From positions 19,723 through 83,722 of the forward strand of contig CAZLEF010000020.1 in NCBI GenBank assembly GCA_964558465.1: a DNA stretch of 64,000 nucleotides. Direction: 5' to 3'. This DNA comes from an uncultured Lewinella sp. GTDB taxonomy: Bacteria > Bacteroidota > Bacteroidia > Chitinophagales > Saprospiraceae. The position numbers and the translations under genes are program-made. Positions 4,800-54,164 of the stretch are shown here, piece after piece; within the stretch, counting starts at the first letter, position 1; every line of letters starts with the position of its first letter. Under the pieces are notes generated by a model. The model was not told the origin of the DNA and did no database searches. It was given only the letters and a program-made list of their open reading frames with translations.

Positions 4800-4810
4800 C
4801 TTTTTTATTG

Positions 4811-5012
4811 GTTCGATTGATTCGATTGATTCGATTGATTCGATTGATTCGATTGATGCGTCGCATCAACCACGCCTTCCGCGTGGCACGCACATCCTCC
4901 CATCCTCGCATCCTCACATCCTCACATCCTCACATCCTCACATCTTCGCATCCTCGCATCCTCGCATCCTCGCATCCTCGCATCCTCCCATCCTCCCATC
5001 CTCCCATCAACA
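4811..5012. repeat. Composite tandem-repeat spacer: (GATTCGATT)n, core TTCCGCGTGGCACGCA, then (CATCCTCR)n
   Basis: About 6 copies of TTCGATTGA-type octamers come first. The motif GCGTCGCATCAACCACGCCTTCCGCGTGGCACGCA follows, then about 14 octamers CATCCTCG/CATCCTCA/CATCCTCC. Confidence 0.85.
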
Positions 5013-5017
5013 AATGA

Positions 5018-11754: not shown

Positions 11755-11842
11755 GGAGGGATGGCAGAGCGGTTGATTGCACCTGTCTTGAAAACAGGCG
11801 TAGGTGATGAGCCTACCGGGGGTTCGAATCCCTCTCCCTCCG
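11755..11842 (+). tRNA. tRNA-Ser (anticodon UGA)
   Basis: Acceptor GGAGGGA/TCCCTCC, anticodon stem CCTGT/ACAGG with loop CTTGAAA, long variable arm CGTAGGTGATGAGCCTACCG, T-loop GGTTCGAATCC. No CCA is encoded. Confidence 0.9.
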
Positions 11843-11904
11843 CAGAATTACACCTTGGGTAAATCGTCTTTCCTGCTCATTGCAGCGATCTTTCTGTCCT
11901 TCCA

Positions 11905-12159
11905 TTAGTGCCTGATAATAATCCATCCTATCGTACTTCCAACGCCCATATTCCCTAAATCTTTTACGCCTTGTGAGTTATCAAAAATGAAGGTAGTAAT
12001 AATTACTCCCAAAAAAGGACCAAGTCCACCAAGGATATGTAACCAATCTGAATGTTCCCAACCAATCTGAAAATTATGGCTCAATACATTAGGCAGCCAG
12101 ATTGACCAGGAAATTCCAAAGCTGATTAGAATGAAAACTATTATTTTTCGGTTGTTCAT
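11905..12159 (-). pseudogene. CPBP (CAAX protease)-family N-terminal fragment
   Basis: 84 aa: FILISFGISWSIWLP...LGGLGPFLGVIITTFIF resembles the N-terminal half of CPBP proteases, but the EExxxR and H motifs are absent. A 38-aa hydrophobic mini-ORF lies just upstream. Confidence 0.35.
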
Positions 12160-12311
12160 TCTTTACCTGTTAAATTCATAAATCATCCAGCCAAAAGTTG
12201 AAATAAACATCAGCCGAAAAGAATGGCAAAACAAACATTATAACAATCAGAGGAATATATGAGGCTATAAATATTTTTACTTCTAATTTCATTCGTGTTT
12301 GTTTTTATGGC

Positions 12312-12329
12312 ACATAACCGGTGTTATGC
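12312..12329 (-). other. Minimal attC-like site (R''-4nt-R')
   Basis: Gene orientation reads TGA-GCATAAC-ACCG-GTTATGT. GCATAAC directly follows the stop of 12330..12989 and is the exact complement of GTTATGC at the 5' edge of that cassette (~12986-12992). Confidence 0.5.
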
Positions 12330-12971
12330 TCAGTTTTGGATTTTTATGTTAATATCATTCAATTTACGAGGAGTCTCTTCTCCAGGTATTATGGCCATAA
12401 TTTTTTCAAATAGAATCTCGTCATTGATTTGAACAATCTGAAGTTTTCTTGAATTCTCAGGTTCAAATCTTCCGCCAGTATTCTTCAATACCAATATCAC
12501 TTCACCGTTTCTGATAATTTTTATTTCATAGGACTTAACCTCGTGATTACCTGACATATCAAATCCTGAAATTCTTGCGACAACACCAGACTGTGCTAAA
12601 AACTCACCTAATGAAATCGTTCCGGAGGTTTTGCGGGCGAATTCAGCCGGCTGATCGGGCCATCGTCTAACGATAATTCTCCGTTTTTCAATGAGTACGG
12701 TGTCATTATTTGTGGTATGGTAGATGAAGAAGTGACTTTCGCCAACTTTCTGTGGGATGTAACTATATCTGCAATCAGTATCTCTGAGTGTAATACTTCC
12801 ATTGTCTGTACTAATGTAAAGGTATTGGCATGCAACTCCTTCGACCACAATAGTTAATGAATTATCAAGACCAGGCCAAGCTGTCGGATAATTTAATTCA
12901 ATTGCTACGTTTTGACCTTGCAGTCTGATGAAAAAGCAGAAAACCAGTATGGCAATTACAAGGTTTTTCAT
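12330..12971 (-). CDS. Secreted hypothetical protein (possibly GldM C-terminal-like)
   Basis: ORF 12330..12989. The probable start is MKNLVIAILVFCFFIRLQGQ (signal peptide). The family assignment is a weak impression only. Confidence 0.45.
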   Translation of the reverse strand: MKNLVIAILVFCFFIRLQGQNVAIELNYPTAWPGLDNSLTIVVEGVACQYLYISTDNGSITLRDTDCRYSYIPQKVGESHFFIYHTTNNDTVLIEKRRIIVRRWPDQPAEFARKTSGTISLGEFLAQSGVVARISGFDMSGNHEVKSYEIKIIRNGEVILVLKNTGGRFEPENSRKLQIVQINDEILFEKIMAIIPGEETPRKLNDINIKIQN

Positions 12972-12986
12972 TGGCATTCCATTGAG

Positions 12987-13215
12987 CATAACGGTTTGCA
13001 GCTTGCCGATGTGGCGGAATTTTAGCTGTAATTCCTAAGGTTGATCAACTGTCCCACAATAAAAAGCAATGTCACTATTAACATTACTTTGTCTTGAAAG
13101 TCAACCGTGTAGTTGGGTGTCATTTGCCATAGCTGTTCGGTTGGCTTGCTGCCGTGCCGCCGTGCATTGGCTTTGCGGGCTGGCTGTTCGGCGGCATGGA
13201 CAGTAAACCGTTGTC
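12987..13215 (-). other. Composite attC-like junction (one E-type palindrome plus remnants of a second site)
   Basis: Gene orientation reads TAA-ATTCACC-GGACAAC-GGTT-TACTGTCCATGCCGCCG...CGGCGGCACGGCAGCA, then AGCCAACCGAAC, then about 120 nt, then CAAACC-GTTATGC. The central CCGCCG...GCTTTGCGGGCTGGCTGTT...CGGCGG block is homologous to sites at 17.8, 19.3 and 25.0 kb. Confidence 0.45.
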
Positions 13216-13223
13216 CGGTGAAT

Positions 13224-14291
13224 TTATTGTTTTATGCGAGTAAGTATTTCTTTACCCGAATCAAAATATTCCGAAATAATATTTTCATACACTATGTCAC
13301 CATTTTCTCCATTTGTAAAAACAATTATCCCTCTTTTTTCCTGTGGCAAAAGAATGATTATTGTGTTTTGCCCTCGGTTTCTTCCAGTATGTGTCAAGGC
13401 ATATCCTCCTTTGGATAAATTTCTTGTCACATTCCACCCTAACCCAAACTCTTTACCATTTTTTAAAACGGCCTGTGTCTTAATCATCTCTAATTGAACA
13501 TCCCCAGACAGGTAATTTCCTTCTAAGATTGCAACTCCAAATCTCCCGTAATCTTTGAGTGTGGAAAGCACCAAATTCGAAGCATTTGCATCATACCATT
13601 TTTCTTTTTCGTATTGAGAACCGTCAGCACGATACCGCTCTGCATAGCGAGTAGTATCCATATTTTTATCCCAGTAAAAGTGAATGTCTTTCATGTCAAG
13701 AGGGCGAAATAAAATAGAATCTACTAATTTTTCTATAGGAATTTGGAATTTACGCTCCAATGCTTTACGAAGGTATTCAAAGCCTTCACCTGAGTATTTC
13801 CATTGAGAGCCGGGCTCAAATGCGAAGGACAATTTTCCATTAGGCTCATTCCCTCTCCAATTAGGCAAGCCTGATTGATGGCAAAGCACATTCCGTGTGG
13901 TTAGTTTTTTATTAAAGGCATCGTTTGCAACGTCAGGATCAGTCCAATAATTACAGAGGGGTTCATCGAGTTGCCATTGTCCGCTGCTGACCAACTTTAA
14001 AGTAGTCGTAGATATTAATGGTTTGGTCAAGGAAGCCAAGTTAAAAAGCGTATTTAAAGGTGCAGGCGAATGATATTCGATATTGCCAAAAATTTTGACT
14101 TGCCGGATTTTGAAATTTTCAATGATACACACCCCGACGGTAGGCACGTTTTCATTTTTCATCCAAGTCAAAATTGGTTCGCTTTTTAAGATTTGTGTGT
14201 GCTTTGGCGAGCACGAATATACCATAAACGCTAATAAGCATATCTGCCAATTTGCAACAGCACACACAAGTTTTATTGATTTTCCTTTCAT
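13224..14291 (-). CDS. Serine hydrolase, beta-lactamase/transpeptidase-like (class C-type fold)
   Basis: 355 aa with a signal peptide, an SxxK motif in FNLASLTKPLIS, and YSGEGFEYL downstream. Confidence 0.8.
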   Translation of the reverse strand: MKGKSIKLVCAVANWQICLLAFMVYSCSPKHTQILKSEPILTWMKNENVPTVGVCIIENFKIRQVKIFGNIEYHSPAPLNTLFNLASLTKPLISTTTLKLVSSGQWQLDEPLCNYWTDPDVANDAFNKKLTTRNVLCHQSGLPNWRGNEPNGKLSFAFEPGSQWKYSGEGFEYLRKALERKFQIPIEKLVDSILFRPLDMKDIHFYWDKNMDTTRYAERYRADGSQYEKEKWYDANASNLVLSTLKDYGRFGVAILEGNYLSGDVQLEMIKTQAVLKNGKEFGLGWNVTRNLSKGGYALTHTGRNRGQNTIIILLPQEKRGIIVFTNGENGDIVYENIISEYFDSGKEILTRIKQ

Positions 14292-14366
14292 TTTTTTAAA
14301 TGTTTAACTCAAAAATGAAAGACACATGTGGCAAATAGAGGTTGCTTTTTTCATTTTTTTAATTTC

Positions 14367-14497
14367 ATCGAACGGTTTGAATATGGGGCGTTTGGCATTT
14401 AAAAACACCAACCTGTCAATCCGCTATATATTTTATTAATTGTTACCATCTTCACATTTAGCACTATCTGCCAAATGCACTATATTTTTTGTTGTGT
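14367..14497 (-). other. attC-like site (131 nt)
   Basis: Gene orientation reads ACACAAC-AAAA-AATATAGTGCATTTGGCA...TGCCAAACGCCCCATATT-CAAACC-GTTCGAT. It starts 8 nt after the stop of 14502..15473. Confidence 0.55.
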
Positions 14498-14501
14498 GTC
14501 G

Positions 14502-15455
14502 TTATTTTATTAATTCTAAGAACCAATTGACCAACTCCTTCTCATCAACAATATTCCAAGTATGAGGGTGTCTGCTCCCATCATTCTGGTAACCTTTATC
14601 TTGAGTGATTATCAATTCCACCTTCTGGTTATCTCGAATTTTAAGTTCATTTATCAAGGCAGCTAAATCAATTGCATTCATGGAGTAAAAGTCCTTTCTT
14701 CTTGTTTCTATCCACCAGGTTACATCTGGTTCAGTATAGCATCTAATGGCTATATTCTTCAATAGATTAAGATTTGAACCTCCATTTGCGCTATAGCAAT
14801 ATGGTGAATAATCTATATATGCTTGTAATGTGTCTGTTGGAGTTCCACCAAGATTTCTCTCAAGATAGCCTGAGACCCACGTGCCCTCGTTTGCTGTAAT
14901 TGGACTGAAGTTAAGCTCCTTCGCTTTTACCATTTCTTTGTGAAAGCGAACCATGTCCAACGGAGAATCACATATGGCAATTGCTTTGGGAACCAATTTA
15001 TGTTTTGACTCAGTACTTTGACCAAACATTGCCAGTTTTATAGCACGTGTTCCTTCTAAAGACATCCCACAATAGAGTAGGTTACTATCGGGTATGTTAT
15101 AAGTTATAAGCACTTCATAGATGTAATTTTCAATTTCATGAACTTTACTATTCTCAAAAAAGAATTCAAGTCTGTTTTCCGTTGTTGCATAAAGTACCGC
15201 AAGTTGTTTCGAAAGGGCATAATCTATGATAAAATCAGCGTTTACTGTATCTCTTCTTGCATGAGTGAAGACAATCAATCCTTTTATTTTTTCGATTTTT
15301 GGCAGCCAGAGCGTGTATCCTCTGTCAACTTTTGGGATGCTAATCCCTTCAGTTAAAAGGATATCGCCTTCTACATGAACTTTCTTGTCAATTACTCTTT
15401 GAGCAAACAAGTTTGACATGCAGAAGATACAGAGTGTTAAAATTGCTGCTTTCAT
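14502..15455 (-). CDS. Secreted hypothetical protein, possible alpha/beta-hydrolase fold
   Basis: ORF 14502..15473 (GTG). The likely start is MKAAILTLCIFCMSNLFAQ. There is a GMSLEG nucleophile-elbow-like segment, but no firm family match by eye. Confidence 0.45.
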   Translation of the reverse strand: MKAAILTLCIFCMSNLFAQRVIDKKVHVEGDILLTEGISIPKVDRGYTLWLPKIEKIKGLIVFTHARRDTVNADFIIDYALSKQLAVLYATTENRLEFFFENSKVHEIENYIYEVLITYNIPDSNLLYCGMSLEGTRAIKLAMFGQSTESKHKLVPKAIAICDSPLDMVRFHKEMVKAKELNFSPITANEGTWVSGYLERNLGGTPTDTLQAYIDYSPYCYSANGGSNLNLLKNIAIRCYTEPDVTWWIETRRKDFYSMNAIDLAALINELKIRDNQKVELIITQDKGYQNDGSRHPHTWNIVDEKELVNWFLELIK

Positions 15456-15474
15456 CCTGTTTTTTAATGACACA

Positions 15475-15625
15475 TCACTCCTTAATGTCTACTGGTATCT
15501 TCTTAGTCGCTTCGCCAATAATTTCTAAGCTGCGAACTATCGCCCGTTTTAGCACTTCGTTATCAATCAAGGCATCTTTGGTCATATCTGGCGATATGCT
15601 GTTATTGATAAATTCACAGTAACTA
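15475..15625 (-). pseudogene. HepT/DUF86 (HEPN toxin) internal fragment
   Basis: The translation ...EFINNSISPDMTKDALIDNEVLKRAIVRSLEIIGEATKKIPVDIKE* carries the RxxxxLEIIGEA signature of DUF86. The N-terminus is cut by MITE copy A, and the C-terminal RxxxxH half is missing. Confidence 0.5.
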
Positions 15626-16104
15626 CCCAGTCCCCCAAAGCTATAAAAAATTGACGGAATAAGGTTAACCTGGCAGGCATAAAATCCAGGGCCTTATGCC
15701 AGGAATTTCCAGCCCATACGCCGGGATGAGAAAGACACGCCTGATCCGCAAGATTGAGGCGCTGGAAAGGTATTGCCGGAGTCTGGAAAAAGCCAACCAG
15801 GCAGGTATTTCGGGAGGTGAAGTTTTGTACATGGACAAGGAGAAAGCCAGGTTGATCGGGGAATTACTGAAGCGGGATCGGCTGGTAGCTTCCCTTTCCA
15901 AATTGGTCAGAAAATAAATGTATTCAATGCACTCAAAAATATTTTTGAAGGAATTATCCCGCCAGTCCAGTATCCGAAATTGGAATAAATAAAAACACTC
16001 CAAAATTATCCGCAAAATATTATGGTTTATTTTTGAAGCCTCCGGAAATCATCTCCGTGAGATTAGGCCCGCTTGTTTTGTTAACTTTTGGACTGGGTAA
16101 TTAC
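15619..16104 (+). mobile_element. MITE-like element, copy A (486 bp) with ~15-20-bp terminal inverted repeats
   Basis: The left end is GTAACTACCCAGTCC and the reverse complement of the right end is GTAATTACCCAGTCC. It is about 90% identical to copy B outside a divergent central segment and carries a coiled-coil ORF remnant (15696..15917). Confidence 0.65.
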
Positions 16105-16139
16105 GATTCTTTTAATCAAAAAATGGACTTTTGATTCTC

Positions 16140-16766
16140 TCATTTGTCGCCAAACTTGACCAGCCCCCAAACTCCTAACAGCCATAGTCCCAAAGCAAGC
16201 GGCCAGAATATTTCCAGATTATAATACAAGGCTTGGGCAGTTATAAGAGATGGGATAGATAATATAAAAGCCAATCCGACCCACCAGGGTGCTATTTTTT
16301 TTCTCATTATCGCTACACCTGCAATGATCCAGGCGAAGAAAAAGCACCAATTATACAGGAAGAGTCCCGACAACCAAATTAAAGTAGCTTCCGATTCTAA
16401 TCCATCATTTATCGCCTTCGGGTCCATCCCTGAAGCCACAAAGCCTGCGGATAAAGCTCGAAAACCAGAAATAAAGGCGATAAACGCTGTACCCAAAACA
16501 CCCAATACCGTTACCACGATTCCTGTGTTAGGAGACCGCTCTGCGATTCGTTGTCCCATGAAAATGAAAGTGGCCACAAAAAAAGGAACACCAATCGTCA
16601 TAATCAGGCCTTCGTATGAACTGACCCAGTAAAGTTCACCCGGAAGCGTTCCAATTCCAAATGCCCTTACTACCGATGCAATAAAAAAGCATAATGGCGC
16701 AACTAACGCCAGCATGGGCAATCGCTTCCGAAAAGTTCTCACCCATTTGTCATTCTGATTTTCCAT
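16140..16766 (-). CDS. Integral membrane protein (about 6 TM), unknown function
   Basis: ORF 16140..16931. The upstream third is encoded by the attC-like palindrome, so the start MENQNDKWVRTFRK at 16766 is more likely. Confidence 0.55.
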   Translation of the reverse strand: MENQNDKWVRTFRKRLPMLALVAPLCFFIASVVRAFGIGTLPGELYWVSSYEGLIMTIGVPFFVATFIFMGQRIAERSPNTGIVVTVLGVLGTAFIAFISGFRALSAGFVASGMDPKAINDGLESEATLIWLSGLFLYNWCFFFAWIIAGVAIMRKKIAPWWVGLAFILSIPSLITAQALYYNLEIFWPLALGLWLLGVWGLVKFGDK

Positions 16767-16811
16767 TTTGTTTTGTTTTAAATTAATTATTCCTGTTTTC
16801 TTCTTATTTAC

Positions 16812-16941
16812 CGCTAACGTTTGTGTTTCTGCAGTGGTGCCTTCCCGAAGCCGCGTCCTGTCCCACGACACCAAGCGTTGAGCGAAGATAAAACTAAAAA
16901 CCAACTCGTCACGGCACCATTGCAGAAACATTTTGTTGTGA
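16812..16941 (-). other. attC-like site (~130 nt)
   Basis: Gene orientation reads TCACAAC-AAAA-TGTTTCTGCAATGGTGCC-(~71 nt)-GGCACCACTGCAGAAACA-CAAAC-GTTAGCG, with an 18-bp stem carrying one mismatch. R'' matches GTTGTGC at 17797-17803 in 6 of 7 positions. Confidence 0.6.
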
Positions 16942-16948
16942 GTAGTTT

Positions 16949-17770
16949 TTACTTGTAGTATTCATATTCAAAAAAATCCGGAATAAATCCACGGACACTT
17001 TTTAGTAGTCCGTTAGGGTAATAGAAGTATGTCAATTTTGCATTCCACGTCCTATCATTCATAAACACCTGATTGATGTCAGAGCTTATGATTTGTCCCC
17101 TTGAATTAAAACTGTTGGCACATACAGTATTGCTGTTAAAGTGTTGAAGGTCTTTGTAGTCGGAATACTGAACTTTGGATGTGTCTTGTCCGACAACCAT
17201 TAGCCCGTCTTTAAGCTTGGGCTCCCAAGTATATCCATACCATCGTTTTGTATAAAAGTCGTTTTCATACTCTGTTGTCATGTGATAAACTATAAGAGTG
17301 TCTCTTCGTTGGGTTTTTATTGATTTAAAGGGCTCGTAATAATAGAGAGTCTCATAATTTGGGGAATCGGGGAATTTCTCTTGGAAGTCCTGAGACTTTG
17401 TCAACCTGCCCAATGAGTCATAGAAGAAAAGTGTGTAGTCAACTCCGAAAGAACCGTCAAAATAAGCAGTAGAGTCAATGATTTGAATCAATCTCATGTT
17501 TGAGTCATATTTGTAATGCTTTGTCCCTTCTATTCTTTTATTTTTTCGAGTTTTCCCATTGTATGATGCGCTGTATCTAATAGAGCGAATTTTACGTCCA
17601 TCTTTGTCCAAGTAAGTTATCTCTGCTAAATCTCTTGGTGAGTTCTCAAATCGAGTGATTTTTCTCACACTCCTATTTTTATAAATGCTGTCTGGTTGGG
17701 AGCTATTTTCGCTTTGTCCGTAAACACTACTTGATAAAGTGAAACATATTAGTATTAAAACTTTATTCAT
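16949..17770 (-). CDS. Secreted protein with YD/RHS-like repeats
   Basis: ORF 16949..17815 (GTG). The likely start is MNKVLILICFTLSSSVYGQ. Repeats are of the form HYKYDSNMRLIQI and FFYDSLGRLTKS (YDxxGRL-like). Confidence 0.5.
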   Translation of the reverse strand: MNKVLILICFTLSSSVYGQSENSSQPDSIYKNRSVRKITRFENSPRDLAEITYLDKDGRKIRSIRYSASYNGKTRKNKRIEGTKHYKYDSNMRLIQIIDSTAYFDGSFGVDYTLFFYDSLGRLTKSQDFQEKFPDSPNYETLYYYEPFKSIKTQRRDTLIVYHMTTEYENDFYTKRWYGYTWEPKLKDGLMVVGQDTSKVQYSDYKDLQHFNSNTVCANSFNSRGQIISSDINQVFMNDRTWNAKLTYFYYPNGLLKSVRGFIPDFFEYEYYK

Positions 17771-17796
17771 CGGTCTGTCCTGTCCGTAAAAATTGC

Positions 17797-17884
17797 GCAC
17801 AACGGTTGCACTCACGCATACCGCCGCCTGCGTTGGCTTTGCGGTTTAGCTTTAGCGGCGGTTGGTGTGAGTGTGGTGTTGGCT
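17797..17884 (-). other. attC-like site (88 nt)
   Basis: Gene orientation reads AGCCAAC-ACCA-CACTCAC-ACCA-ACCGCCGC-(27 nt)-GCGGCGGT-ATGC-GTGAGTG-CAACC-GTTGTGC. It overlaps the last 24 codons of the TIR ORF. R'' is the exact complement of GTTGGCT at 19289-19295. Confidence 0.7.
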
Positions 17885-19269
17885 GCCTTCTTTATTTCTC
17901 TGTGAGCCATAAACAGAATTATCCCCCAAAATAAATGATGAGTTGATGATGAAATCTGTTGTAAGGTCATGCCATTTCCAGCAAATATACTTAAAAAGTC
18001 ATAAACGCCAAACTTTGCATTTGAAATATTTATTATTACAAAAGTCAAAGTCAATATCGCAAGCAATCTTTGCTTTTTTAATATTACAATCAAAATTATT
18101 GAAATGCCTAAAAATATAAATTGAGAAAAATTCCATAACATTTCGTTGATTATCCTTTGCTTGTCAATATCAATATTATCGTATCCAAATTTCCATATAA
18201 ATTCCGAAAACAACGATAAGATAATTTGAAGCATACAAAGTAATTTCCCAAAAAAATTTCCGTATAGGCTAAACAAAACAGAAAAACATAACATTTCAAT
18301 TAACATCGGTAAAGTAATGACTAATGGGTCATAAAACAAAGTAATTATACTGTTATTTTCATTTATATTATCAGCCCAGTATCCGTAATAGACAAAACCA
18401 AGAAACACTAAAATACAACTTATACACCCTATCAATAATAAATTACTTTTACCTTCTAAACTAGTAAAATTAAGTCTTTCCATTGCTCTTGAAAATACAC
18501 CATGCTTTTCAGTAAGATTGTTTTTATGAAAATTTTGGTTAGTGAAGCCTAAAAAAATAAGGAGTTGCTCTTTATCTTCAGCAATTTGAATCCTTTTTAA
18601 TAAATAAGGAATACTTTCAAAACTAAATTCATTACCCTTCAAAATAAATATTTTTCTTTCACCTTTACTGTTAATGTAAGTTTCATTATAAAAAGTCTCA
18701 TATTCTGATTTTACCCATTCTGACTCCATTGAGTTTTTTGATACAATCAACAGGAAATGTGTACTATTCTTTAACGCATTGCTTATATTAGTAAAATAGG
18801 AGTTACCAATATTACTTTTTAAAGACTCATGTGAATAAAAAACCTTGTAACCATGTTGCGTCAGGTGTTTCCATATTTCATCAGCAAAGTGCGTATCAAA
18901 CGACGAATAGCATAAGAAAATATCATATACTTTTTCACCCACTTCTGCAATTAACGTTGTTTTGTTTATTTTTTCGCTTACTGTTTTCTCAATTAAATTG
19001 TTATCCGGTATCGCTTCTATCAGTTGAAGCAATGAATGCCTTATCCTATTTTTTTCAATTGATATACCTCCTTCGCTTATTATTCCAGCATTAATTTGTT
19101 TCTTTAAATCTTTGTGCCTTCCTGAAATTAAAATTAAATTATTATATATATCATTTAAGTCAATGGTGATGCTTTCATCATTATATAGTTTTAATGAAGT
19201 AATCATTTTCTCTATTAACAAATCTATGCTATCTTCTTGGATTAGTATCTTTAAATTTTTCTTATCCAT
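17812..19269 (-). CDS. TIR-domain protein with N-terminal helical adaptor-like module and C-terminal multi-TM region
   Basis: 485 aa. The TIR core is YDIFLCYSSFDTHFADEIWKHLTQHGYKVFYSHESL...LLIVSKNSMESEWVKSEYE. Residues ~275-460 form about 5-6 hydrophobic helices. Confidence 0.8.
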   Translation of the reverse strand: MDKKNLKILIQEDSIDLLIEKMITSLKLYNDESITIDLNDIYNNLILISGRHKDLKKQINAGIISEGGISIEKNRIRHSLLQLIEAIPDNNLIEKTVSEKINKTTLIAEVGEKVYDIFLCYSSFDTHFADEIWKHLTQHGYKVFYSHESLKSNIGNSYFTNISNALKNSTHFLLIVSKNSMESEWVKSEYETFYNETYINSKGERKIFILKGNEFSFESIPYLLKRIQIAEDKEQLLIFLGFTNQNFHKNNLTEKHGVFSRAMERLNFTSLEGKSNLLLIGCISCILVFLGFVYYGYWADNINENNSIITLFYDPLVITLPMLIEMLCFSVLFSLYGNFFGKLLCMLQIILSLFSEFIWKFGYDNIDIDKQRIINEMLWNFSQFIFLGISIILIVILKKQRLLAILTLTFVIINISNAKFGVYDFLSIFAGNGMTLQQISSSTHHLFWGIILFMAHREIKKAANTTLTPTAAKAKPQSQRRRRYA

Positions 19270-19288
19270 ATTTTGTTCTTTTGGTTGC

Positions 19289-19379
19289 AGCCAACGGCTG
19301 CACTCCTGTCAGCCCGCCGCCTGCGTTGGCTTTGTGCGGCTGATTTTGGCGGTGGGTTGGCAGGAGTGCTTTGTTAGCG
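19289..19379 (-). other. attC-like site (91 nt)
   Basis: Gene orientation reads CGCTAAC-AAAG-CACTCCTGCCAACCCACCGCC-(26 nt)-GGCGGCGGGCTGACAGGAGTG-CAGCC-GTTGGCT. R'' is the exact complement of GTTAGCG at 20581-20587. Confidence 0.7.
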
Positions 19380-19390
19380 GATTGTTCAAT

Positions 19391-20548
19391 TCATTCATAC
19401 ACTTGGATGTTTCGGAATTCAACATTATCGCTTCCCGTCCCAGTATGACGCCGATTGATTGTCATTTGCAATTTTGAAATGACCTTTACAGGGATACCGA
19501 CTTGCCCGAATTCAATATTAATATCAACAGGGTATCCTGCAACAATAGTTTTTTTTGTGCCGTAGTAAGCACCTCCACCAGTTTTCCCCCCTATTTCGAT
19601 ACTGATAGGATTAAATTCTTTACCAGAATCCCCGTCAAGAACTCTTGTTTTATCCTTTCCAAAAACACTTAATTCTACATCCATATCCTCGCTTTGAACT
19701 TGACAATTACATCGAATAATTTGCTAAAATTGACTACATTTTTTAAGTTTAAAAGTTAATTCTCCAACTTTTGCTGTCTCTCTTGGGGTTAATTTAGGTG
19801 CTTCTGATCTGGCTTTGCTTACAGTTTCTTTTTGACCTATTCCATTGCCTATAAGGATGTTCCTAAATTCTACCTTATTACTTCCAGTTCCTGTATGGGC
19901 TTGATTAATCGTCATTTCCAGTTTTGAAATATTTTCAACTGGAAAAGTCACGTCTCCAAATTCAATTAATATATCTACTGGGTATCCTTCGACAATAGTT
20001 TTTTTCGTTCCATAGTATGCACCACCTCCGGTTTTTCCACCAATTTTGATACTGATAGGATTGAATTCTTTACCAGAATTTCCATCTATTATTCTCGTTT
20101 TATCCTTCCCGAAAATGCTTAAATCCACATCCCTATCTTCACTCTTTACTTTACAGTGGCAAGAAATGAATTGCTCGGTTTGATTACAACCTACAAGGTT
20201 AAAGGTTAAATTACCGCTTTTTGCCGTACTGGAATTAATTTGTTGAGGTGTTTCGGGTTGAGGTTTAACTATCTCCGGTTCTGGGTAGATTTTTTCTTCA
20301 CTTGAAACTGGCAAGTCTTTTCTTGGTTTTGAATTGGCTTTGGGTTCAGTCGAATTGCCTTCTTCTAATGACGATTGTGTTTGCGAGCCAGTATCTAAAG
20401 AGACACCTCGTGTTTCTTTTTCAGTCATTTGCTGTTTCTCTTGGGCTTCTTGGTATTTTTGATATTTTAAAACTAGAATCCCACCAACAACTGTGATGAA
20501 AAGCCCAATAATTATCTCTTTCAAATAATTTTTCCGTTCAGTTGACAT
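19391..20548 (-). pseudogene. Membrane-anchored protein with two ~95-aa tandem domains, interrupted by one in-frame TAG
   Basis: ORFs 19724..20548 and 19391..19684 are in the same frame. The junction reads ...ELTFKLKKCSQF*QIIRCNCQVQSEDMDVELSVFGKDKTR, which parallels LTFNLVGCNQTEQFISCHCKVKSEDRDVDLSIFGKDKTR in repeat 1. Confidence 0.6.
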
Positions 20549-20580
20549 TTTGTTTTATTTTGTTTGTCAATTTTATTTAC

Positions 20581-20646
20581 CGCTAACGGTGGCACACACG
20601 ATGGAGCGAGCGAATGCGAGCTATGGAAGTGTGTGTTTTGTTCGCT
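20581..20646 (-). other. attC-like site (66 nt)
   Basis: Gene orientation reads AGCGAAC-AAAA-CACACAC-(29 nt)-GTGTGTG-CCACC-GTTAGCG. R'' is the exact complement of GTTCGCT at 21436-21442. Confidence 0.7.
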
Positions 20647-20666
20647 TCCGGTTTCTTTTTTATTCT

Positions 20667-21413
20667 TTACATCCCTCCACATAACGTCATTCTTGTCATA
20701 ATGTGGATACAATAAAAATAGTTTGCTACTTTATATAATGCATCTGAAACATCTTCTAAGACTTTTTCATCTTCTTGAAAAGCGTCCGTTATTTTATCAT
20801 TTTCATCAACCTTCACAAATACTTTTTGCCCAAATTTCCTTTTTTTATCCCCGCTTTGGATTTTCTCCATAAATTTTGTCAATGTATCAGCATCAAATCT
20901 TTTCATAGTGAATTTATGCTTGTCCAAGGAAGTGTCTTTTGTCACAGGATATCTAAAAAAAGAACTATCCCTATCATACTTACAAATGATTGGAAATAGA
21001 TTTGAGATTTTTTTTACCTCTCGCCAATCTCCTTTCGGGGCAATTTTTTCTAATTTTTTTTTATTTTGTTTCAATAACTGGTTAAGCCAATAATCGTAAA
21101 GTTCATCAATCCAATGACAAGTATATAATGGTCTCCAAGCTCCGCCTGTAAAAATTTTGGGGTTATCACTTTCAAATGAATCTTGATCATAGTTAATTTC
21201 TAACTTTTTATGAAAAATCACTATTAGTGACTTCAGATATAATTCAATAGAATGCCTAAATAGAAAATTTTCGGGCATCTCCCTTTGTTGAATGACATCA
21301 TAATGTTCATGATGATTATTTCTTAAATGTTCAGCACTTTTAAAATAGGAATCACCCGTAATCCCAAATCCGAAATCGGGATGTAGTTCAATCCCGGACA
21401 TTGTGTACATCAT
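20667..21413 (-). CDS. Hypothetical alpha-helical protein (weak HEPN-like impression only)
   Basis: 248 aa with an N-terminal helix NFLFRHSIELYLKSLIVIF and a later SSFFRYPVTK. I could not find a canonical Rx4-6H motif. Confidence 0.4.
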   Translation of the reverse strand: MMYTMSGIELHPDFGFGITGDSYFKSAEHLRNNHHEHYDVIQQREMPENFLFRHSIELYLKSLIVIFHKKLEINYDQDSFESDNPKIFTGGAWRPLYTCHWIDELYDYWLNQLLKQNKKKLEKIAPKGDWREVKKISNLFPIICKYDRDSSFFRYPVTKDTSLDKHKFTMKRFDADTLTKFMEKIQSGDKKRKFGQKVFVKVDENDKITDAFQEDEKVLEDVSDALYKVANYFYCIHIMTRMTLCGGM

Positions 21414-21435
21414 ATTATTTCTTTTTTCTAATGGA

Positions 21436-21500
21436 AGCGAACGGGGGCATGGACGACATGGCGACGTTTAGGAGCCATGTGTGACCATGCAATGTTGTCA
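21436..21500 (-). other. attC-like site (65 nt)
   Basis: Gene orientation reads TGACAAC-ATTG-CATGG-TCACA-CATGGC-(11 nt)-GCCATG-TCGT-CCATG-CCCCC-GTTCGCT. The TGA of R'' is the ATPase stop codon. Confidence 0.7.
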
Positions 21501-22673
21501 GATTTTTCCTTGCATGTTTAATAGGACATACGGTTTCATCATTGGATTATAAAATCTGTATCTAATGTTCTTACCATTTCCTAGTTTTTCAAGGAGTAAT
21601 CCCCTTTCTTCATGGCATAATTTACCTAAATTATGGGTAATATTTTCACGAATTGAGTTTTTTCCAGTAATCCGATTAAATTCTTTTAGTATCTCACTTG
21701 TCGTAAAAGAATCAAACTCATCTGTTTTACACATTGCACATGCCTGTACAACAGGTTTCCATTGAGAATTAATAGAAGATGATTGAATTGCTTTTCTATA
21801 GGATTCTCGTAGTTGTTCGCTGGCATTCTCTATTGCTTGTCTAATGGCAGAATCTAATTCAGAATTACCAACTTTGGTATAATTACGGTCAAGTGCCCTT
21901 TGAATTGAGTATTTACATAACAAATGTGTATAATGAGGAAATCCAGAAGAAAATTTTACTATTTTACCAGTTATTGATTTTATTATTTCCATCTCTAAAT
22001 CAGCAAACCCTTTCTCGACAATCTCTGTAAGTTCAACATCTGACATTCTTGGCATCTTTATTTGCATTAAGCATCTTTCTAATGATTGATGATTTCCAAT
22101 CAAATTGCTTACATTTTCAGCGATACCAACAATCATTATTTTTATATTCCTAGAATTGTCCGACAAAGATTTTATCAAATCAGCGAACTGAACCCTAGTA
22201 GGTTGATTTTTTATATTATCAAATTCGTCAAAAATGAATAAAAATTTGTTTGAAGGGAATTGTCGCAAACAATTATATATATCGTAAGGCATTAGATTTT
22301 CAATGCCTGCTATATATTGGTTTAGCGAAATTAATTTTTGTCTGGTTTGTGGATTAAATCCAATTCCCTGGGTAGTTGTCGTGAATTGAACTTCACTTAA
22401 TGCCCGTTCCCATAAGTTCTTAAAATTATCAGAACTTCCACAGGTTACTTTTACGCTATAAAGATTTGTAATCTTTTTTTGAGTTATATTTGCCATTGAT
22501 GTTTTTCCTACTCCCCTTTCGCCAAATAAAATAGCATGTTGCCCCTCTTCATTCATAACTTGAACAATCCTTTTTAACTGCTCAATTCTACCCCGAAAGA
22601 AGTTTTCCTCCTTAATCGGAGACATTGGTGAGAATACTGTACTTAGTTTAAGTTTACGTTCTTCAATGTTCAT
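21498..22673 (-). CDS. AAA+ ATPase, ORC/Cdc6-like with C-terminal winged-helix-like region
   Basis: 391 aa with Walker A GERGVGKTS and Walker B LFIFDEFD, then a helical lid and a C-terminal RYRFYNPMMKPYV segment. Confidence 0.8.
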   Translation of the reverse strand: MNIEERKLKLSTVFSPMSPIKEENFFRGRIEQLKRIVQVMNEEGQHAILFGERGVGKTSMANITQKKITNLYSVKVTCGSSDNFKNLWERALSEVQFTTTTQGIGFNPQTRQKLISLNQYIAGIENLMPYDIYNCLRQFPSNKFLFIFDEFDNIKNQPTRVQFADLIKSLSDNSRNIKIMIVGIAENVSNLIGNHQSLERCLMQIKMPRMSDVELTEIVEKGFADLEMEIIKSITGKIVKFSSGFPHYTHLLCKYSIQRALDRNYTKVGNSELDSAIRQAIENASEQLRESYRKAIQSSSINSQWKPVVQACAMCKTDEFDSFTTSEILKEFNRITGKNSIRENITHNLGKLCHEERGLLLEKLGNGKNIRYRFYNPMMKPYVLLNMQGKI

Positions 22674-22700
22674 TTTTCATTAATTTAAATTTCTGACAAT

Positions 22701-23285
22701 TTATAGCCGTGCATACGCCGCCCCCACCAACACTCCGCCTTACCCGAAGCAGTTAAGCGGGTGGCGGATGAACGAAGTTGAACTATGCCGCTTTACCCGA
22801 AGCAATTATGGGCATCGCATCCACTCCCCTGGTCTAAGACCGTGAAAAACCCAACTGCAAAATACGTCCCTTGCAGCGGAAAAGCAAGGATGGAGGCTTG
22901 AACCATAGAAAAAAATGCCATTTATCAACGATTTATAGGTGAATTGGATGCGTTCGGCAAAAAACCTCCAGCCGGGTATGTTCCCCGGAAATAAAACTGG
23001 ACAATTATCAGGTTTGGAGCTGTCACTAATCACGAAAAGTGTACCAGCAATTTGCACGGAATGCGCATGCGGCGGGCCCGCTGTCTCCATAGGAGTCCTT
23101 TGGACCGGGAGCAAGGCCCTTCTGGCTGGAAATGGATTGACCAAACCGGGGAACCGCCAGGAGCATGGCCGTTCCGTCGATGACTTTTAGCCTGGAGACC
23201 TTGCCCGGATCTTTTTCCACCTTTTGGCGTCAACCAGCCCGCAAGCGGGCGGGTAAAAAGGTGGACCAAAACCGGCGGCTTACGC
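22701..23285 (-). other. GC-rich ORF-less element U, copy 1 (attI-like site or structured RNA candidate)
   Basis: It is homologous to 26590-~27100, near-identical over the first 76 nt and recognisable for about 400 nt. There is no conserved reading frame, and indels break every frame. In gene orientation it ends ...GCACGGCTATAA directly before (A)TTGTCA, the 5' edge of the ATPase cassette. Confidence 0.45.
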
Positions 23286-23405
23286 ATCTTCGGCTAAAAC
23301 AGGAGTTATTTCTTTCGAATCACACGCTAATTTATGTGATAACTTATCTGCAATAAATTTGCAATTTCCAGTTTTTGAGTAAAACAACAATAAGTAAGTT
23401 TTCAT
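23280..23405 (-). pseudogene. Flavodoxin-like N-terminal fragment (41 codons)
   Basis: MKTYLLLFYSKTGNCKFIADKLSHKLACDSKEITPVLAEDA* has the flavodoxin YSxTGNT-like start. The frame ends where element U copy 1 begins. Confidence 0.4.
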
Positions 23406-23465
23406 TTGTTTTAAATTTTTATTACGTTTCTAAATATTATAATTGTGTCGTCACGTTAGCTGTTG

Positions 23466-24395
23466 TTATTCTATTTCAAAATGTTTCATTACTCGTAAAA
23501 CTCTCAATGTATTCCATCTACTTGGTTTGCCTGCTTTCTCCATGTTGACGTGTACCTGACCGGGATGAGCAGCTTGCATATTCCAAGATCCTTCATTGTT
23601 TCGTTTTGACTTCAGTACATCAATCGTTGCTTTCATTCTGTCGTCCCATTCAATTCCGGCATATTGAAAAAAATCCATAGCTCGAAGAATATCATATTTC
23701 CATCTGCATGGATAAGTCAACTTCAAAAAGTCTTTATTAATAATTTGACCTGTTCGGTCAGACAAAAATAGTTGATGTAACAAAATAAATTCAATTGAAC
23801 TTTTTTGAGCGCTGAGAATTGCGTTCTTTCTATAGGTGTATCCGGCTTTTTGAAATTCTGTAAACCCTTCAAGTACGGATATTGTCGAGTGTAAGGAACT
23901 GTGTTTAGCTCCACTTCTTGTTGTCCTGCAGTTAAAACCTCCATCTGGCATTATCTCATTTAATAAACAGTCAATAATGGAATGCATCTTTTTTTCAGAT
24001 GTTTTGAAATACGAAGCGTAATTCAAAAACATTCCATTTACACAAACATCACTATGCTGTGATGTAGATGGCCCCAATTGAATTCCTCCATCATCTGCTT
24101 TGTTGTTTTGTAAAATCATCTCTATAGTTTCTTGTACAATCTCATTGCTTGAAGGGAGATTTAAATTGCGAAGGTCAAGTAAAGTGTAATGAGTGGAAAT
24201 CCATTTTGGTTGATAAAATCTATCGCCCCAATGACCGTCTGATTTTCGTTTGGATAAGTATTCATGACCCCAGCCTTCATTCGATATTCTGGCCTGAAGT
24301 TTCTTTTTTTCAACTCCCAACAAATCACGCCACACTTGGTATTGTATGGACACATCTCCTTCCAGCAGCCAATCGATGATTTGTTGATTGCTCAT
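23466..24395 (-). CDS. Prenyltransferase/terpene-cyclase-like alpha/alpha-toroid repeat protein (hypothetical)
   Basis: ORF 23466..24419 with likely start MSNQQIIDWLLEG. It has recurrent SDGHWGDR, PDGGFNCR and NEGSWNMQ motifs typical of such repeats. Confidence 0.45.
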   Translation of the reverse strand: MSNQQIIDWLLEGDVSIQYQVWRDLLGVEKKKLQARISNEGWGHEYLSKRKSDGHWGDRFYQPKWISTHYTLLDLRNLNLPSSNEIVQETIEMILQNNKADDGGIQLGPSTSQHSDVCVNGMFLNYASYFKTSEKKMHSIIDCLLNEIMPDGGFNCRTTRSGAKHSSLHSTISVLEGFTEFQKAGYTYRKNAILSAQKSSIEFILLHQLFLSDRTGQIINKDFLKLTYPCRWKYDILRAMDFFQYAGIEWDDRMKATIDVLKSKRNNEGSWNMQAAHPGQVHVNMEKAGKPSRWNTLRVLRVMKHFEIE

Positions 24396-24398
24396 TAC

Positions 24399-24912
24399 TG
24401 TAACTATCCAGTCCCCCAAAGCTATAAAAAATTAGCGGAATAAGGTTAACCTGGCAGGCATAAAATCCAGGGTCTTATGCCAGGAATTTCCAGCCCATAC
24501 GCAGGTATGAGAAAGACTCGCCTGATCCACAAGATCGAGGCGCTGGAAAGGTATTGCCGGAGTCTGGAAAAAGCCAATCAGGTAGGTATTTCGGGAGGTG
24601 AAGTTTTGTACATGGACAAGGAGAAAGCCAGGTTGATCGAGGAATTATTGAAGCGGGATCGGCTGGTAGCCTCCCTTTCCGAACTGGTTCGGCAGTTGCA
24701 AACGGAAAACGAAACCCTTGGGGAGCAACTGGAAGAACTGGTCAAAGCCAAACTGAAGGAATTATCCCCCCAATCCAGTATCCGAAATTGGAATAAATAA
24801 AAATACTCCAAAATTATCTGCAAAATATTATGGTTGATTTTTGAAGCCTCCGGAAATCATATCCGTGGGATAAGGCTGGCTTGTTTTGTTAACTTTTGGA
24901 CTGGGTAATTAC
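24399..24912 (+). mobile_element. MITE-like element, copy B (514 bp)
   Basis: It has the same termini as copy A (GTAACTATCCAGTCC ... GGACTGGGTAATTAC). It contains a 107-aa coiled-coil ORF (24477..24800) that is truncated in copy A. Confidence 0.65.
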
Positions 24913-24976
24913 TAAGGTACTTCTGTATGACATTGATTACTTTTTCTTTTATATTTTTTTATTATTTTTCAGTTTC

Positions 24977-25056
24977 AGCGAACTGTGGGCTTGCCGCCAT
25001 GTGTTGCTTTTGCAGGCTGGCTGTTTAGCGGCATGGACAGCCAGTCGGAGTTCTAC
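24977..25056 (-). other. attC-like site (80 nt, E-type)
   Basis: Gene orientation reads GTAGAAC-TCCG-ACTGGCTGTCCATGCCGC-(29 nt)-GGCGGCAAG-CCCACA-GTTCGCT. R'' is the exact complement of GTTCTAC at 26583-26589. Confidence 0.6.
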
Positions 25057-25106
25057 AGTTTTATTTGTTTTCAATGATTTATGCAAGTAGGGCGCCGGAA
25101 CAGGCA

Positions 25107-26561
25107 CTACAAATACTCATCAATCAACTCAATTAGTGCCATTGTAATCCTTGTTCTTTCTCTACTTGCATCATCATAAGATATTGTATTTGAATTCTCT
25201 TTTGTTCTTAATTCAGAAAATTGTGAATTATAAAGGATTGCCTTATTACGAGCTTCGTTATCCTCTACATCTTTAAAGGATGAAAGCAAGAGTGTCAAAG
25301 ATTTACCTATCTTTCCCTTTGAAATTAAATCTTGAATTTCTTTTTTTGAATGATTTGAGCTTAATGAATTGATATCAGATAATGGTTTGTCATGTACTGT
25401 ATCAATTGAAACATTATTTGAATTAACTACAATTGTGCTATTGCTAATATTTTCAAATTTATTGCCCATAACTGTTTCATTGATTTCAAAGTGAAAAAAA
25501 TCTTTGTATTTAAGTAGAGTTTCTTTTGAAATTTTACCATTCGCAATTTCATGAATTGGAAAATCAATTTTATCAAAATGAGTTATGTGCTCATCAAAAT
25601 CGCCCTCAATGACAAGTTCGCTTGAGCGAGAATATCTAAGAGCATAATCTTCTAACCAATTTACTGCCCTTTTCAATCCGTTATCCTTCCGATCTGGGTT
25701 AAAATAGCAAAAACTCATATTTTGATCTAAAATATTATTTCCTCGATAATACAAAATTACAATGCTTGAATACAAATCTTGATTATTTGAAGGTTTAATG
25801 AATTCTAGATTTTCAATATAAATACAATAGCGAGGGATTTCTTTATTAGATTTAATCAAGGAAAGTTCATTGGGAATAATTTTCAATCTGCCAATTAAGT
25901 TAACAATAAACCCTCCATTTTCTTTTATTTTTGAAATACAATCACGATATAAAGACATTTCAACAATTAGTGGTATTCCCTCATGACTTACACCTGTTGA
26001 AGATGCTCCTAAAATATAACATTCTCTACCATAAATAAATTTATTTGCCAATCTTAATGAACCAATACCTCCTTTTATCATATTCTCTTTGCCCTCTGGT
26101 GTATATTCTATTAACTGTTTTTGGGTATATCCTTCCTCACCAAGAGAATTTAAAATACTTTGAAACTCTTCAGAAGAATTTCGAAGGTTGTAACTTATCT
26201 GAGCATGAATTTTTTTTTCAAAAGCATCTTTATTGTAGAATAATGCTAGCCTTTGTGCATATCGTCTGCTATATATAGATTCATAGGTATAAAATAAGCC
26301 AGGAGATGTTGGTATCCATTCAGTCAAATGAAATTTTTCAAGCCTTATTATTTGCTCATTGTGACATTCATTCTCCAAGATAGATTTCCAAAAATCAAAA
26401 TTACTATTGAATATCTTGTCTGGGTTGTTTCTATTTTGAGTTTTGTTTTCAATATGAGAATACATATAAACATTTAGTTGATTTTTAATAAAATCAACTA
26501 AGTCACTTCTTACTATGTAAGCTTGATGACCTTTATCTATTAGAATATCATCTGCATTCAT
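25107..26561 (-). CDS. Large hypothetical protein with C-terminal helical adaptor-like module shared with the TIR protein
   Basis: ORF 25107..26690. The first 43 codons are encoded by element U, so the start MNADDILIDKG at 26561 is more likely. The C-terminus AILYNSQFSELRTKENSNTISYDDASRERTRITMALIELIDEY aligns with LILISGRHKDLKKQINAGIISEGGISIEKNRIRHSLLQLIEAI of the TIR protein. Confidence 0.55.
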   Translation of the reverse strand: MNADDILIDKGHQAYIVRSDLVDFIKNQLNVYMYSHIENKTQNRNNPDKIFNSNFDFWKSILENECHNEQIIRLEKFHLTEWIPTSPGLFYTYESIYSRRYAQRLALFYNKDAFEKKIHAQISYNLRNSSEEFQSILNSLGEEGYTQKQLIEYTPEGKENMIKGGIGSLRLANKFIYGRECYILGASSTGVSHEGIPLIVEMSLYRDCISKIKENGGFIVNLIGRLKIIPNELSLIKSNKEIPRYCIYIENLEFIKPSNNQDLYSSIVILYYRGNNILDQNMSFCYFNPDRKDNGLKRAVNWLEDYALRYSRSSELVIEGDFDEHITHFDKIDFPIHEIANGKISKETLLKYKDFFHFEINETVMGNKFENISNSTIVVNSNNVSIDTVHDKPLSDINSLSSNHSKKEIQDLISKGKIGKSLTLLLSSFKDVEDNEARNKAILYNSQFSELRTKENSNTISYDDASRERTRITMALIELIDEYL

Positions 26562-26589
26562 CTTTTTTATATTTTTCGTTTCGTAGAAC

Positions 26590-27100
26590 TTATAGCCGTG
26601 CATACGCCGCCCCCAACAACACTCCGCCTTACCCGAAGCAGTTAAGCGGGTGGCGGATGAACGAACCCCGCTACAAGGGGGCCGATGCAATTATGGGCAT
26701 CGCATCCAACTCCTTGATCTAAAGGCATAAAAACTAAGGTGCAAAATACACTTGTTGCGGCTGAAAAGCAAGCTTTTGGACTCAAACGTATGAGAAAGAA
26801 CGTCATCAATCAATGATTTATCCATGAATGGGTTGCGTCAGGCAAAAACATCTCCTGCCGGGCATATTCCCCGGAATTAAAAATACAACATGATAAGGCT
26901 TGAGGCAATGGATGAGCATGCGGCGGGGCCCGTTGCCTTGGTTCAACGGGGTTTTAACCAGAAATAGAAAGGCGAATCCGGATAACTGGCTGGAGCGTCC
27001 AGACGCCACCCCGGCGGCCCCGGCTTCATCACACCCACAAATAAAATTACCATTGTTGCCCAAAACCGGACATACCCTGTCCAATATCGGACAGAAGACG
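26590..27100 (-). other. GC-rich ORF-less element U, copy 2, at the array/core junction
   Basis: In gene orientation it ends ...GCACGGCTATAA directly before GTTCTAC, the 5' edge of cassette 25107..26561. The outer boundary toward 27.1 kb is fuzzy. Confidence 0.45.
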
Positions 27101-33232: not shown

Positions 33233-33385
33233 TAGTGGTGGACGGCAGATGGCCTACGGTGGACGGTGGACGGCCTATGGTAGACGGCCTATGGTAGATT
33301 TATCCGCCTGGCGCGAGGTACGAGCATTGGGCGGACGGTAGACGGTCTATGGCAGACGGTCTGCGGTAGGGGGTGGACGGGTGAT
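33230..33385. repeat. Degenerate tandem repeats of GGACGGT/GGCCTATGGTAGAC words
   Basis: The sequence reads GTGGACGGCAGATGGCCTACGGTGGACGGTGGACGGCCTATGGTAGACGGCCTATGGTAGA...GGACGGTAGACGGTCTATGGCAGACGGTCTGCGGTAGGGGGTGGACGG. Confidence 0.75.
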
Positions 33386-39607: not shown

Positions 39608-39624
39608 AACCCAGAAGTTATAAT

Positions 39625-39810
39625 TTTTCGATTGATCCGATTGGTTCGATTGATTGGCAGCCCTCGAATCAACAAATCAACGCATCAACAAATCAACAAT
39701 TGATTGAATTGATCCGATTGATTGGATTGATTGGATTGGTTCGATTGATTGGCAGCCCTCGAATCAACAAATCAACGCATCAACAAATCAACAATTGATC
39801 GGATCATTCT
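39625..39810. repeat. Tandem duplication (period 95 nt) of a palindromic GATTGATT/AATCAAC spacer
   Basis: There are exact 62-nt copies at 39643-39704 and 39738-39799: GGTTCGATTGATTGGCAGCCCTCGAATCAACAAATCAACGCATCAACAAATCAACAATTGAT. Confidence 0.85.
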
Positions 39811-54116: not shown

Positions 54117-54164
54117 GCGATAAAGATACGGCCTTTGACGGAATTTTGGATGGGACATGTTTTT

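Follow-up and report, generated by a model that had tools for sequence, protein, structure and literature searches.

We examined a 64,000-nucleotide stretch of contig CAZLEF010000020.1, from an uncultured Lewinella sp. of the Bacteroidota. This whole stretch is called the window below; clustering at 90% identity leaves most of its proteins as singletons. An island of low guanine-cytosine (GC) content runs from 11850 to 27100, with 36.8% GC against about 53% in the flanks. It holds a cassette array in which all open reading frames (ORFs) are on the minus strand. Two of these ORFs are the subject here. The first, our target (17812..19269), encodes 485 amino acids that make up an EAD11 adaptor domain, a TIR domain, a module of about six transmembrane (TM) helices and a tail encoded by an attC-like site. 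The second (25107..26561) is the gene of a putative partner, 484 amino acids long, that ends in the only other EAD11 found in the window.

An EAD11-TIR protein with six membrane helices

The target ORF opens with an ATG at 19269 on the minus strand and closes with a stop codon at 17812-17814. The public gene call starts at Met22, which gives 464 amino acids. We argue that the longer start is more likely because the EAD11 match begins at residue 2 and the homologs align from the N-terminus. A first-pass annotation, made from the letters alone, had seen three parts in this protein and had proposed searches of Pfam and PADLOC as a check. Those searches were run, and both TIR and EAD families match. 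The three parts are EAD11 (residues 2-87), TIR_2 (117-209) and a six-helix membrane region, much as first described.

What had been called an adaptor-like N-terminus is EAD11 (PF19964), one of the effector-associated domains (EADs) of Pfam. It sits at the protein terminus and is encoded at 19009..19266 on the minus strand. Its match to the Pfam profile has an E-value of 1.2e-12 and 48.1 bits against a gathering cut-off of 26. AlphaFold2 models it as a four-helix bundle with helices at 3-11, 15-29, 36-61 and 66-86. It must be said that the model of the whole protein has a mean predicted local distance difference test score (pLDDT) of only 51.5. This score falls below 50 in the TM region.

The TIR domain covers residues 115-235 (18565..18927, minus strand). 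The TIR_2 match has an E-value of 1.5e-15 and 58.2 bits against a cut-off of 28, and the Pfam TIR family matches too (1.6e-8, 35 bits against 21.3). ThsB_TIR stays below its threshold, with 19 against 21.2 bits. PADLOC and NCBIfam match the target in its TIR part only. The families hit there (PDC-S66, the ThsB models and retron-TIR) are defence families, and the scores are far under the equivalog cut-offs (43 against 600 bits). The best sequence matches in the PDB are the Brucella TIR protein 4lzp and AbTIR (8g83, 7uwg). The first-pass annotation had also claimed that the W-x-x-x-E glutamate is retained in the sequence SEWVKSEYE. This is borne out by the alignment: Trp185 (codon 18715-18717) and Glu189 (codon 18703-18705) line up column for column with 'DWTNYELD' of AbTIR (7uwg, 8g83) and 'QWPARELD' of 4lzp. 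Glu189 would be the counterpart of the catalytic Glu208 of AbTIR, an equivalence that depends on our own numbering of the 7uwg construct. The retained glutamate suggests that this TIR is probably NAD-cleaving.

EAD11-TIR is an existing architecture in public proteins. Four relatives of the target were found among 5.8 billion clusters and five more in a metagenome scan; a scan of viral contigs for EAD11-TIR relatives gave none. All of the relatives have the motif SEWVK(S/T)EYETFYNE, so that SEWVKxEYETFYNE is invariant in the clade and its catalytic glutamate is found in every member. EAD11 is conserved across the clade, and the C-termini are diverse. Two proteins (P0002 and P0004) end in an acidic soluble tail, and two (L046 and L047) have coiled-coil repeats. 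In five close relatives a single TM helix stands at the same position, followed by OmpA (P0003), FKBP_C (L049) or an unassigned domain (L048, L050 and L046, with about 225 residues in the last). A membrane tether after the TIR is the rule in this clade, and the six-helix module is unique to the window protein. In one relative, P0004 (L002:6156-7314), a frameshift or an assembly error has put the beginning of EAD11 on an ORF of its own, 59 amino acids long. The gene is part of an array-like series of short ORFs on one strand that has attC-like sites.

The membrane module of the target spans residues 271-461 (17887..18459, minus strand). The first-pass annotation had counted five to six hydrophobic helices, and Kyte-Doolittle windows together with the AlphaFold2 secondary structure give about six between residues 271 and 466. 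Our reading of the loop charges suggests an N-in/C-in topology, which fits the positive-inside rule. An exhaustive phmmer search with the C-terminal 245 residues against 1.84 billion representative proteins returned a sole match, the protein itself. It is worth considering whether such a segment is coding at all. It has 216 stop-free codons at 27% GC, which has a probability of about 3e-9 under a composition model, and none of 20,000 shuffles was free of stops. GC and GC at third codon positions are uniform across the EAD11, TIR and TM parts (26-29%). Since the stop-free run is so improbable and the composition is like that of the two other parts, the TM segment is real coding sequence.

The first-pass annotation had also entertained a membrane-disrupting role for this region. 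We do not favour it. The region may be an anchor or an envelope sensor rather than a dedicated membrane-disrupting effector, because the nearest relatives repeatedly have a membrane tether behind the TIR. The last 24 residues (AANTTLTPTAAKAKPQSQRRRRYA; 17815-17886, minus strand) are a different matter. As had been noticed at first sight, their codons fall inside an attC-like palindrome (17797-17884). They have 60% GC against 27% in the rest of the gene.

The second EAD11 and domain X

In a Pfam scan of the other island ORFs, the C-terminus of ORF 25107-26690 matches EAD11 as well, with an E-value of 2.8e-16 and 59.7 bits. Translation of this gene probably starts at Met44 (26561). The sequence upstream of that ATG is homologous to that upstream of the ATG of an ATPase gene in the same island. 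The protein begins with a region that we call domain X (residues 1-370, 25452-26561). This is followed by a NISNSTI motif, a linker and then EAD11 (residues 405-482, 25116-25349). The gene is about 5.8 kilobases (kb) from the start codon of the target, on the same strand and in the same low-GC island. A BLAST search of the window with the EAD11 of the target missed the second copy because the two are only 28% identical; the profile scan finds it. A hidden Markov model (HMM) of EAD11 that we built found no further copy in the window, and on about 125 other loci it found only the genes the loci were fetched for and the frameshifted P0004 fragment (L002). A word-indexed search of 5.8e9 sequences with an alignment of EAD11 alone found nothing, since an 80-residue domain cannot reach significance against that many sequences.

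The pairing matters because of what has been proposed for EADs. These are small domains without enzymatic activity, placed at a protein terminus, with one copy on a core component and a further copy on effector or signalling proteins (Kaur, Burroughs, Iyer & Aravind 2020, eLife 9:e52696, PMC7159879). The two members of a pair may be adjacent or elsewhere in the genome, and they are proposed to bridge homotypically like Death-fold domains (PMC7159879). This coupling was put forward as a prediction, and TIR is a listed effector type (PMC7159879). The name EAD11 is absent from the text of the 2020 and 2021 EAD papers and is found only in Pfam. With ORF 25107-26561 the paired occurrence that marks the EAD class is present in the window, and domain X is a putative core in the sense of those authors. 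The first-pass annotation took the target for a one-gene arrangement. With a second EAD11 in the same island, it is probably not a self-sufficient system.

Domain X, about 370 residues long, has no match in Pfam, NCBIfam or PADLOC. It is a family, with 51 homologs in the protein collection and 36 loci in GTDB genomes. These are found in the Bacteroidota, Chlorobiota, Chloroflexota, Acidobacteriota, Planctomycetota, Cyanobacteria, Verrucomicrobiota, Actinomycetota and Proteobacteria. The AlphaFold2 model of the partner is confident (pLDDT 81.6, predicted template modelling score 0.71). Neither Foldseek searches of the PDB and BFVD with this model nor a profile search of PDB sequences gave a significant match. 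The matches that came up, OB-fold or SSB-like, were weak, with E-values of 0.01 or more and template modelling scores of about 0.1-0.2.

The X-EAD11 architecture is found in about ten proteins, and elsewhere X has other attachments. It is joined to CHAT in three proteins (P0016, P0022 and P0034) and to HEAT repeats in one (P0050), and a caspase precedes it in L033. It is followed by a multi-TM region in L021 and by a TM helix with an outer domain in L042. X is also found with two kinds of helical tails of about 105-115 residues. Since X is fused in these proteins to caspase and CHAT proteases, HEAT repeats and TM modules, we read it as the probable constant module, with the C-terminal position as the variable output.

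The commoner of the two tails ('MGDxFxNIxNSTIVNRS...W.GL..LP', C-terminal, about 105 residues) ends in a hydrophobic helix and has no match among Pfam families. It also occurs on ORFs that neighbour X genes (L007:7205-7861, L010:11116-12363, L024:9513-9878 and, on the minus strand, L027:8366-10057). A tail common to X and a neighbouring ORF looks like adaptor-style coupling by a different module. It is not a divergent EAD11, which is ruled out by an hhalign probability of 0.07%. This tail could serve as an adaptor of a new kind, or insert into the membrane. The X neighbour in L010 resembled a TIR by eye; there is no Pfam support for this and the claim was dropped.

The genes around X vary as well. 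One X gene is in a defence island with an MmeI-type methyltransferase, PLD, PIN and SNF2 (L005), and another is in the accessory region of a prophage (L007). A third is near an integrase (L008), and those of L003 and L004 stand alone beside housekeeping genes.

The cassette array

The island is bounded on the left by tRNA-Ser(TGA) at 11755-11843 and on the other side by a MacB/FtsX gene at 27205-29592. The array may therefore lie at a tRNA-associated integration hotspot. An Rfam scan of the island found nothing except the tRNA.

The attC-like sites were delimited by single-stranded DNA folding of the intergenic regions; a simple pattern scan recovered only one of them. They have a common layout: an R'' box ending in AAC, a spacer of 4-6 nucleotides (nt), a stem, a spacer and an R' box starting with GTT. 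The first-pass annotation had called the target an individual cassette, and there is indeed an attC-like palindrome on both sides of it. The site on its 3' side (17797..17884) has R'' GCACAAC and R' GTTGGCT around an imperfect stem of 19-20 nt, set off by spacers. The site on its 5' side is the 3' end of the preceding cassette (19289..19379) and has R'' AGCCAAC, a 22-nt stem and R' GTTAGCG. The two have an exact 21-mer in common, which was reproduced in no shuffle of the window. A probable site follows the X-EAD11 gene (24978..25056), with boundaries that are less certain than those of the others. Four further sites are clear (14368-14497, 16813-16941, 20582-20646 and 21437-21500) and one more is probable (13100-13216). 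At least 6 attC-like sites thus separate ORFs of the same strand, and this is the mark of integron gene cassettes. In our reading of the folds two of the sites pair without indels, and canonical extrahelical bases are not evident there.

The idea that delivery is of the integron type stands only in part. The cassette array is there, and no tyrosine recombinase or integron integrase was found among the island and flanking ORFs scanned in the 64-kb window. For lack of an integrase we say the array resembles a cassette array without integrase (CALIN) and not a complete integron. The same kind of site is found on independent contigs, where it flanks EAD11-TIR relatives (L002, L047 and L048). An attC-like site also follows the X-EAD11 gene in L003 and L004. 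It is 81% identical over 53 nt to the 3' attC of the target and has the same orientation relative to its gene. This likeness implies that both partners circulate as cassettes with related attC sites.

Several other cassettes deserve mention. A P-loop ATPase of 391 amino acids (21498-22673, minus strand) has marginal matches to nSTAND1 and AAA_22, a weak match to PDC-S59 of PADLOC and a weak match to an anti-phage protein of NCBIfam. It is probably another defence-type cassette of the array. We considered it as an NTPase core for the EAD11 pair. A direct link was rejected, as it has no EAD11; what it has in common with the X-EAD11 gene is a leader. This GC-richer sequence, about 450 nt long, stands immediately 5' of both the ATPase gene (22674-23130) and the X-EAD11 gene (26562-27000). 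The copies are about 80% identical overall, with a core of about 100 nt that is nearly identical and has hairpin potential just 5' of both start codons. The leader has no Rfam match and could be a shared promoter or regulatory element.

The 97-residue ORF at 19391-19684 (minus strand), beside the upstream attC of the target, is a partial duplicate, 75% identical, of the C-terminal half of the 274-residue ORF at 19724-20548 (minus strand). Neither has a family match. A repeat of about 490 nt, 94% identical, occurs twice within the array (15616-16104 and 24397-24912). It has a coiled-coil-like ORF of 73 amino acids (15696-15917, plus strand) with no Pfam match, and it may be a small mobile element or a remnant. 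The non-defence cassettes of the island include a GldM-like domain protein and a serine hydrolase of the beta-lactamase family (13224-14291, minus strand). The latter is AmpH or class C-like and falls well under the equivalog cut-offs. Outside the island, the intergenic stretches of the high-GC flanks contain tandem repeats of 7-9 nt, such as CATCCTCN, ATTGATTCG and CCGTGAG/GGTGGAC. They lie at 4789-5036, 33220-33380, 38449-38567, 39613-39809, 46612-46680 and 54148-54231.

A proposed two-cassette system and its rivals

The locus can be compared with several known systems. It is like the EAD-coupled systems in that a terminal helical domain has one copy on an effector and the other on a non-effector component of the same genome. 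It differs from them in its core, the unannotated domain X, which is not recognisable as a VMAP, iSTAND or GAP1 NTPase component. It also differs in that the pair is on separate integron-type cassettes and not in one operon. No MoxR or vWA genes are found among the island ORFs scanned. The locus does not qualify as one of the VMAP/iSTAND/GAP1 ternary systems. The target shares the TIR_2 fold and the W-x3-E motif with the bacterial TIR NADases (AbTIR, 4lzp, ThsB and retron-TIR), but adds an N-terminal EAD and a C-terminal polytopic membrane module to them. Thoeris does not fit, as there is no ThsA-like match (SIR2/SLOG or Macro-TM) in the island and ThsB_TIR is below its cut-off. Unlike retron-TIR, the target has no reverse transcriptase or other partner domain.

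NAD+ depletion by TIRs and membrane effectors are the two commonest abortive-infection outputs, and both are used in CBASS and Pycsar. However, TIR and TM effectors are alternatives there and are not fused in one protein. Neither the target nor its neighbours have a cyclase gene or a SAVED, cNMP-binding or STING domain. The target is closer to the integron phage-defence cassettes (BRiCs) in being a compact defence-type gene bounded by attC sites; integron-borne cassettes of this sort are also said to feature in Darracq et al. 2025 and Getz et al. 2025. They include the TIR-domain Brc236 and many that contain TM helices (Kieffer et al., bioRxiv 10.1101/2024.07.02.601719). BRiCs are self-contained in one cassette, whereas the predicted partner here is on another. 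Their hosts are Vibrio or Enterobacteria and not a high-GC member of the Bacteroidota, a placing to which the GldM-like domain and the taxa of the relatives point here, and there is no integrase within 64 kb of this locus. The clade as a whole also invites an analogy with Toll-like and IL-1 receptors, in which an extracytoplasmic domain is joined through a TM segment to a cytoplasmic TIR and assembly is mediated by adaptors. This is an analogy only. The polarity is opposite, with the TIR N-terminal to the TM segment here, the TIR here is probably enzymatic, and no homology is implied beyond the TIR itself.

We give roughly even chances to the view that the target is the effector half of an adaptor-coupled two-protein conflict system, probably one of abortive infection, with each half on its own integron-type cassette. 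One can imagine how this would work. The six-helix module would hold the target in the inner membrane, with EAD11 and the TIR in the cytoplasm. X-EAD11 would be the sensing or regulatory component. Upon a trigger, homotypic contact between the two EAD11 domains would cluster the membrane-bound TIR domains. TIR NADases need self-association, as in SARM1, plant TIRs and bacterial TIR effectors. Here it would complete the active site around Glu189. NAD+ would then be cleaved, which would either deplete it or yield a signalling nucleotide, with arrest or death of the infected cell as the outcome.

Several observations weigh against this scenario. The 28% identity between the two EAD11 copies is barely above the 20-26% between the EAD11 of the target and those of other X-EAD11 proteins, so they are not obviously a co-evolved pair. 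EAD11-TIR and X genes occur together at no other locus available to us, and it must be noted that many of the contigs are short. Within the fetched flanks there is no partner for X-EAD11 in L003 and L004, or for EAD11-TIR in L001, L002 and L046-L048. The relative in L050 has no EAD11, which means that a TIR-TM core can occur by itself, with no adaptor attached. No fold of an NTPase, a sensor or an enzyme is recognisable in domain X, and its sensor role is assumed. Finally, we identified neither a promoter nor an integrase, and the cassette may therefore not be expressed.

Some of these points lead to an alternative. The target could be an autonomous, single-gene, membrane TIR defence, in which EAD11 serves self-association or is vestigial, the TM region senses envelope perturbation or phage entry or damages the membrane, and the TIR depletes NAD+. 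Integron cassettes usually carry self-contained functions, and single-gene TIR and TM-containing defence cassettes such as Brc236 are known in integrons. The lack of a nearby partner at most EAD11-TIR loci and the L050 protein fit this as well. Against this, EAD11 is retained across the clade. Within the window, the one other EAD11 belongs to a modular, sensor-like protein of this island, and the EAD class is defined by paired occurrence (PMC7159879). We consider a lone gene rather unlikely. The target could also be an envelope signalling or scaffolding protein with no anti-phage role. The membrane and periplasmic C-termini would then do the work, and the TIR would be an interaction or low-level signalling module in envelope or social-conflict processes. 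The tethers with periplasmic OmpA or FKBP_C in the relatives are what one would expect of such a protein. Kaur et al. tie EAD systems to multicellular and social bacteria and not to phage defence alone, and the island does have non-defence cassettes (the beta-lactamase-family protein and the GldM-like domain protein). Against this, the catalytic glutamate and the motif around it are invariant in the clade, the closest family matches are defence TIRs, and relatives of X are found in defence islands and a prophage. An envelope role outside defence is improbable in our view.

The orphan membrane module raises one more scenario. Read-through into attC could mean that the gene has lost its native C-terminus and stop, which would make this a decaying or silent cassette whose protein is non-functional as encoded. 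The ORF does terminate only inside attC, and the module has no homolog among the 1.84 billion representatives. No integrase or obvious promoter was found, P0004 in L002 seems frameshifted, and the array contains duplicated gene fragments. We argue that decay is very improbable all the same. The segment has 216 stop-free codons at 27% GC (P of about 3e-9), and its codon composition is uniform with that of the remaining gene. Its helices and loop charges conform to the positive-inside rule, and in the clade a membrane segment at this position is the rule.

The first-pass annotation took the arrangement to be undescribed. This is true of the six-TM module, which is an orphan. It is not true of EAD-TIR effectors, which are a published prediction, or of TIR and TM-containing integron defence cassettes. 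The novelty lies in the combination: an EAD11-TIR protein that carries an orphan polytopic membrane module, with a cognate EAD11 on an uncharacterised and widespread domain X, in two separate cassettes. No experimental test of EAD coupling, which was predicted in 2020 from comparative genomics, was found in the literature. The locus is a minimal two-gene pair (485 and 484 amino acids) that is small enough to synthesise and test.

Domain X is a candidate for a new class of sensor, as it is found in many phyla, has a confident model for which no structural relative is known and occurs in fusions with caspase, CHAT and other domains. Domain X and the idea of split, adaptor-coupled systems in cassette arrays may be the more valuable lead here. 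Should the two proteins indeed be partners, integron cassette arrays would be able to hold split systems, and cassettes of unknown function should be screened in combinations and not only singly. We also put forward, tentatively and with more doubt than belief, a wider claim. Adaptors would make it possible for immune systems of several components to be spread over integron cassettes that are shuffled independently. X would be a multi-phylum sensor family, not recognised before, that drives interchangeable outputs (caspase or CHAT, TM modules and adaptor-recruited effectors), and here its EAD11 would dock a membrane-anchored TIR NADase from a separate cassette. If this is true, the integron could recombine sensors and effectors combinatorially, and thereby escape the one-ORF size limit of its cassettes.

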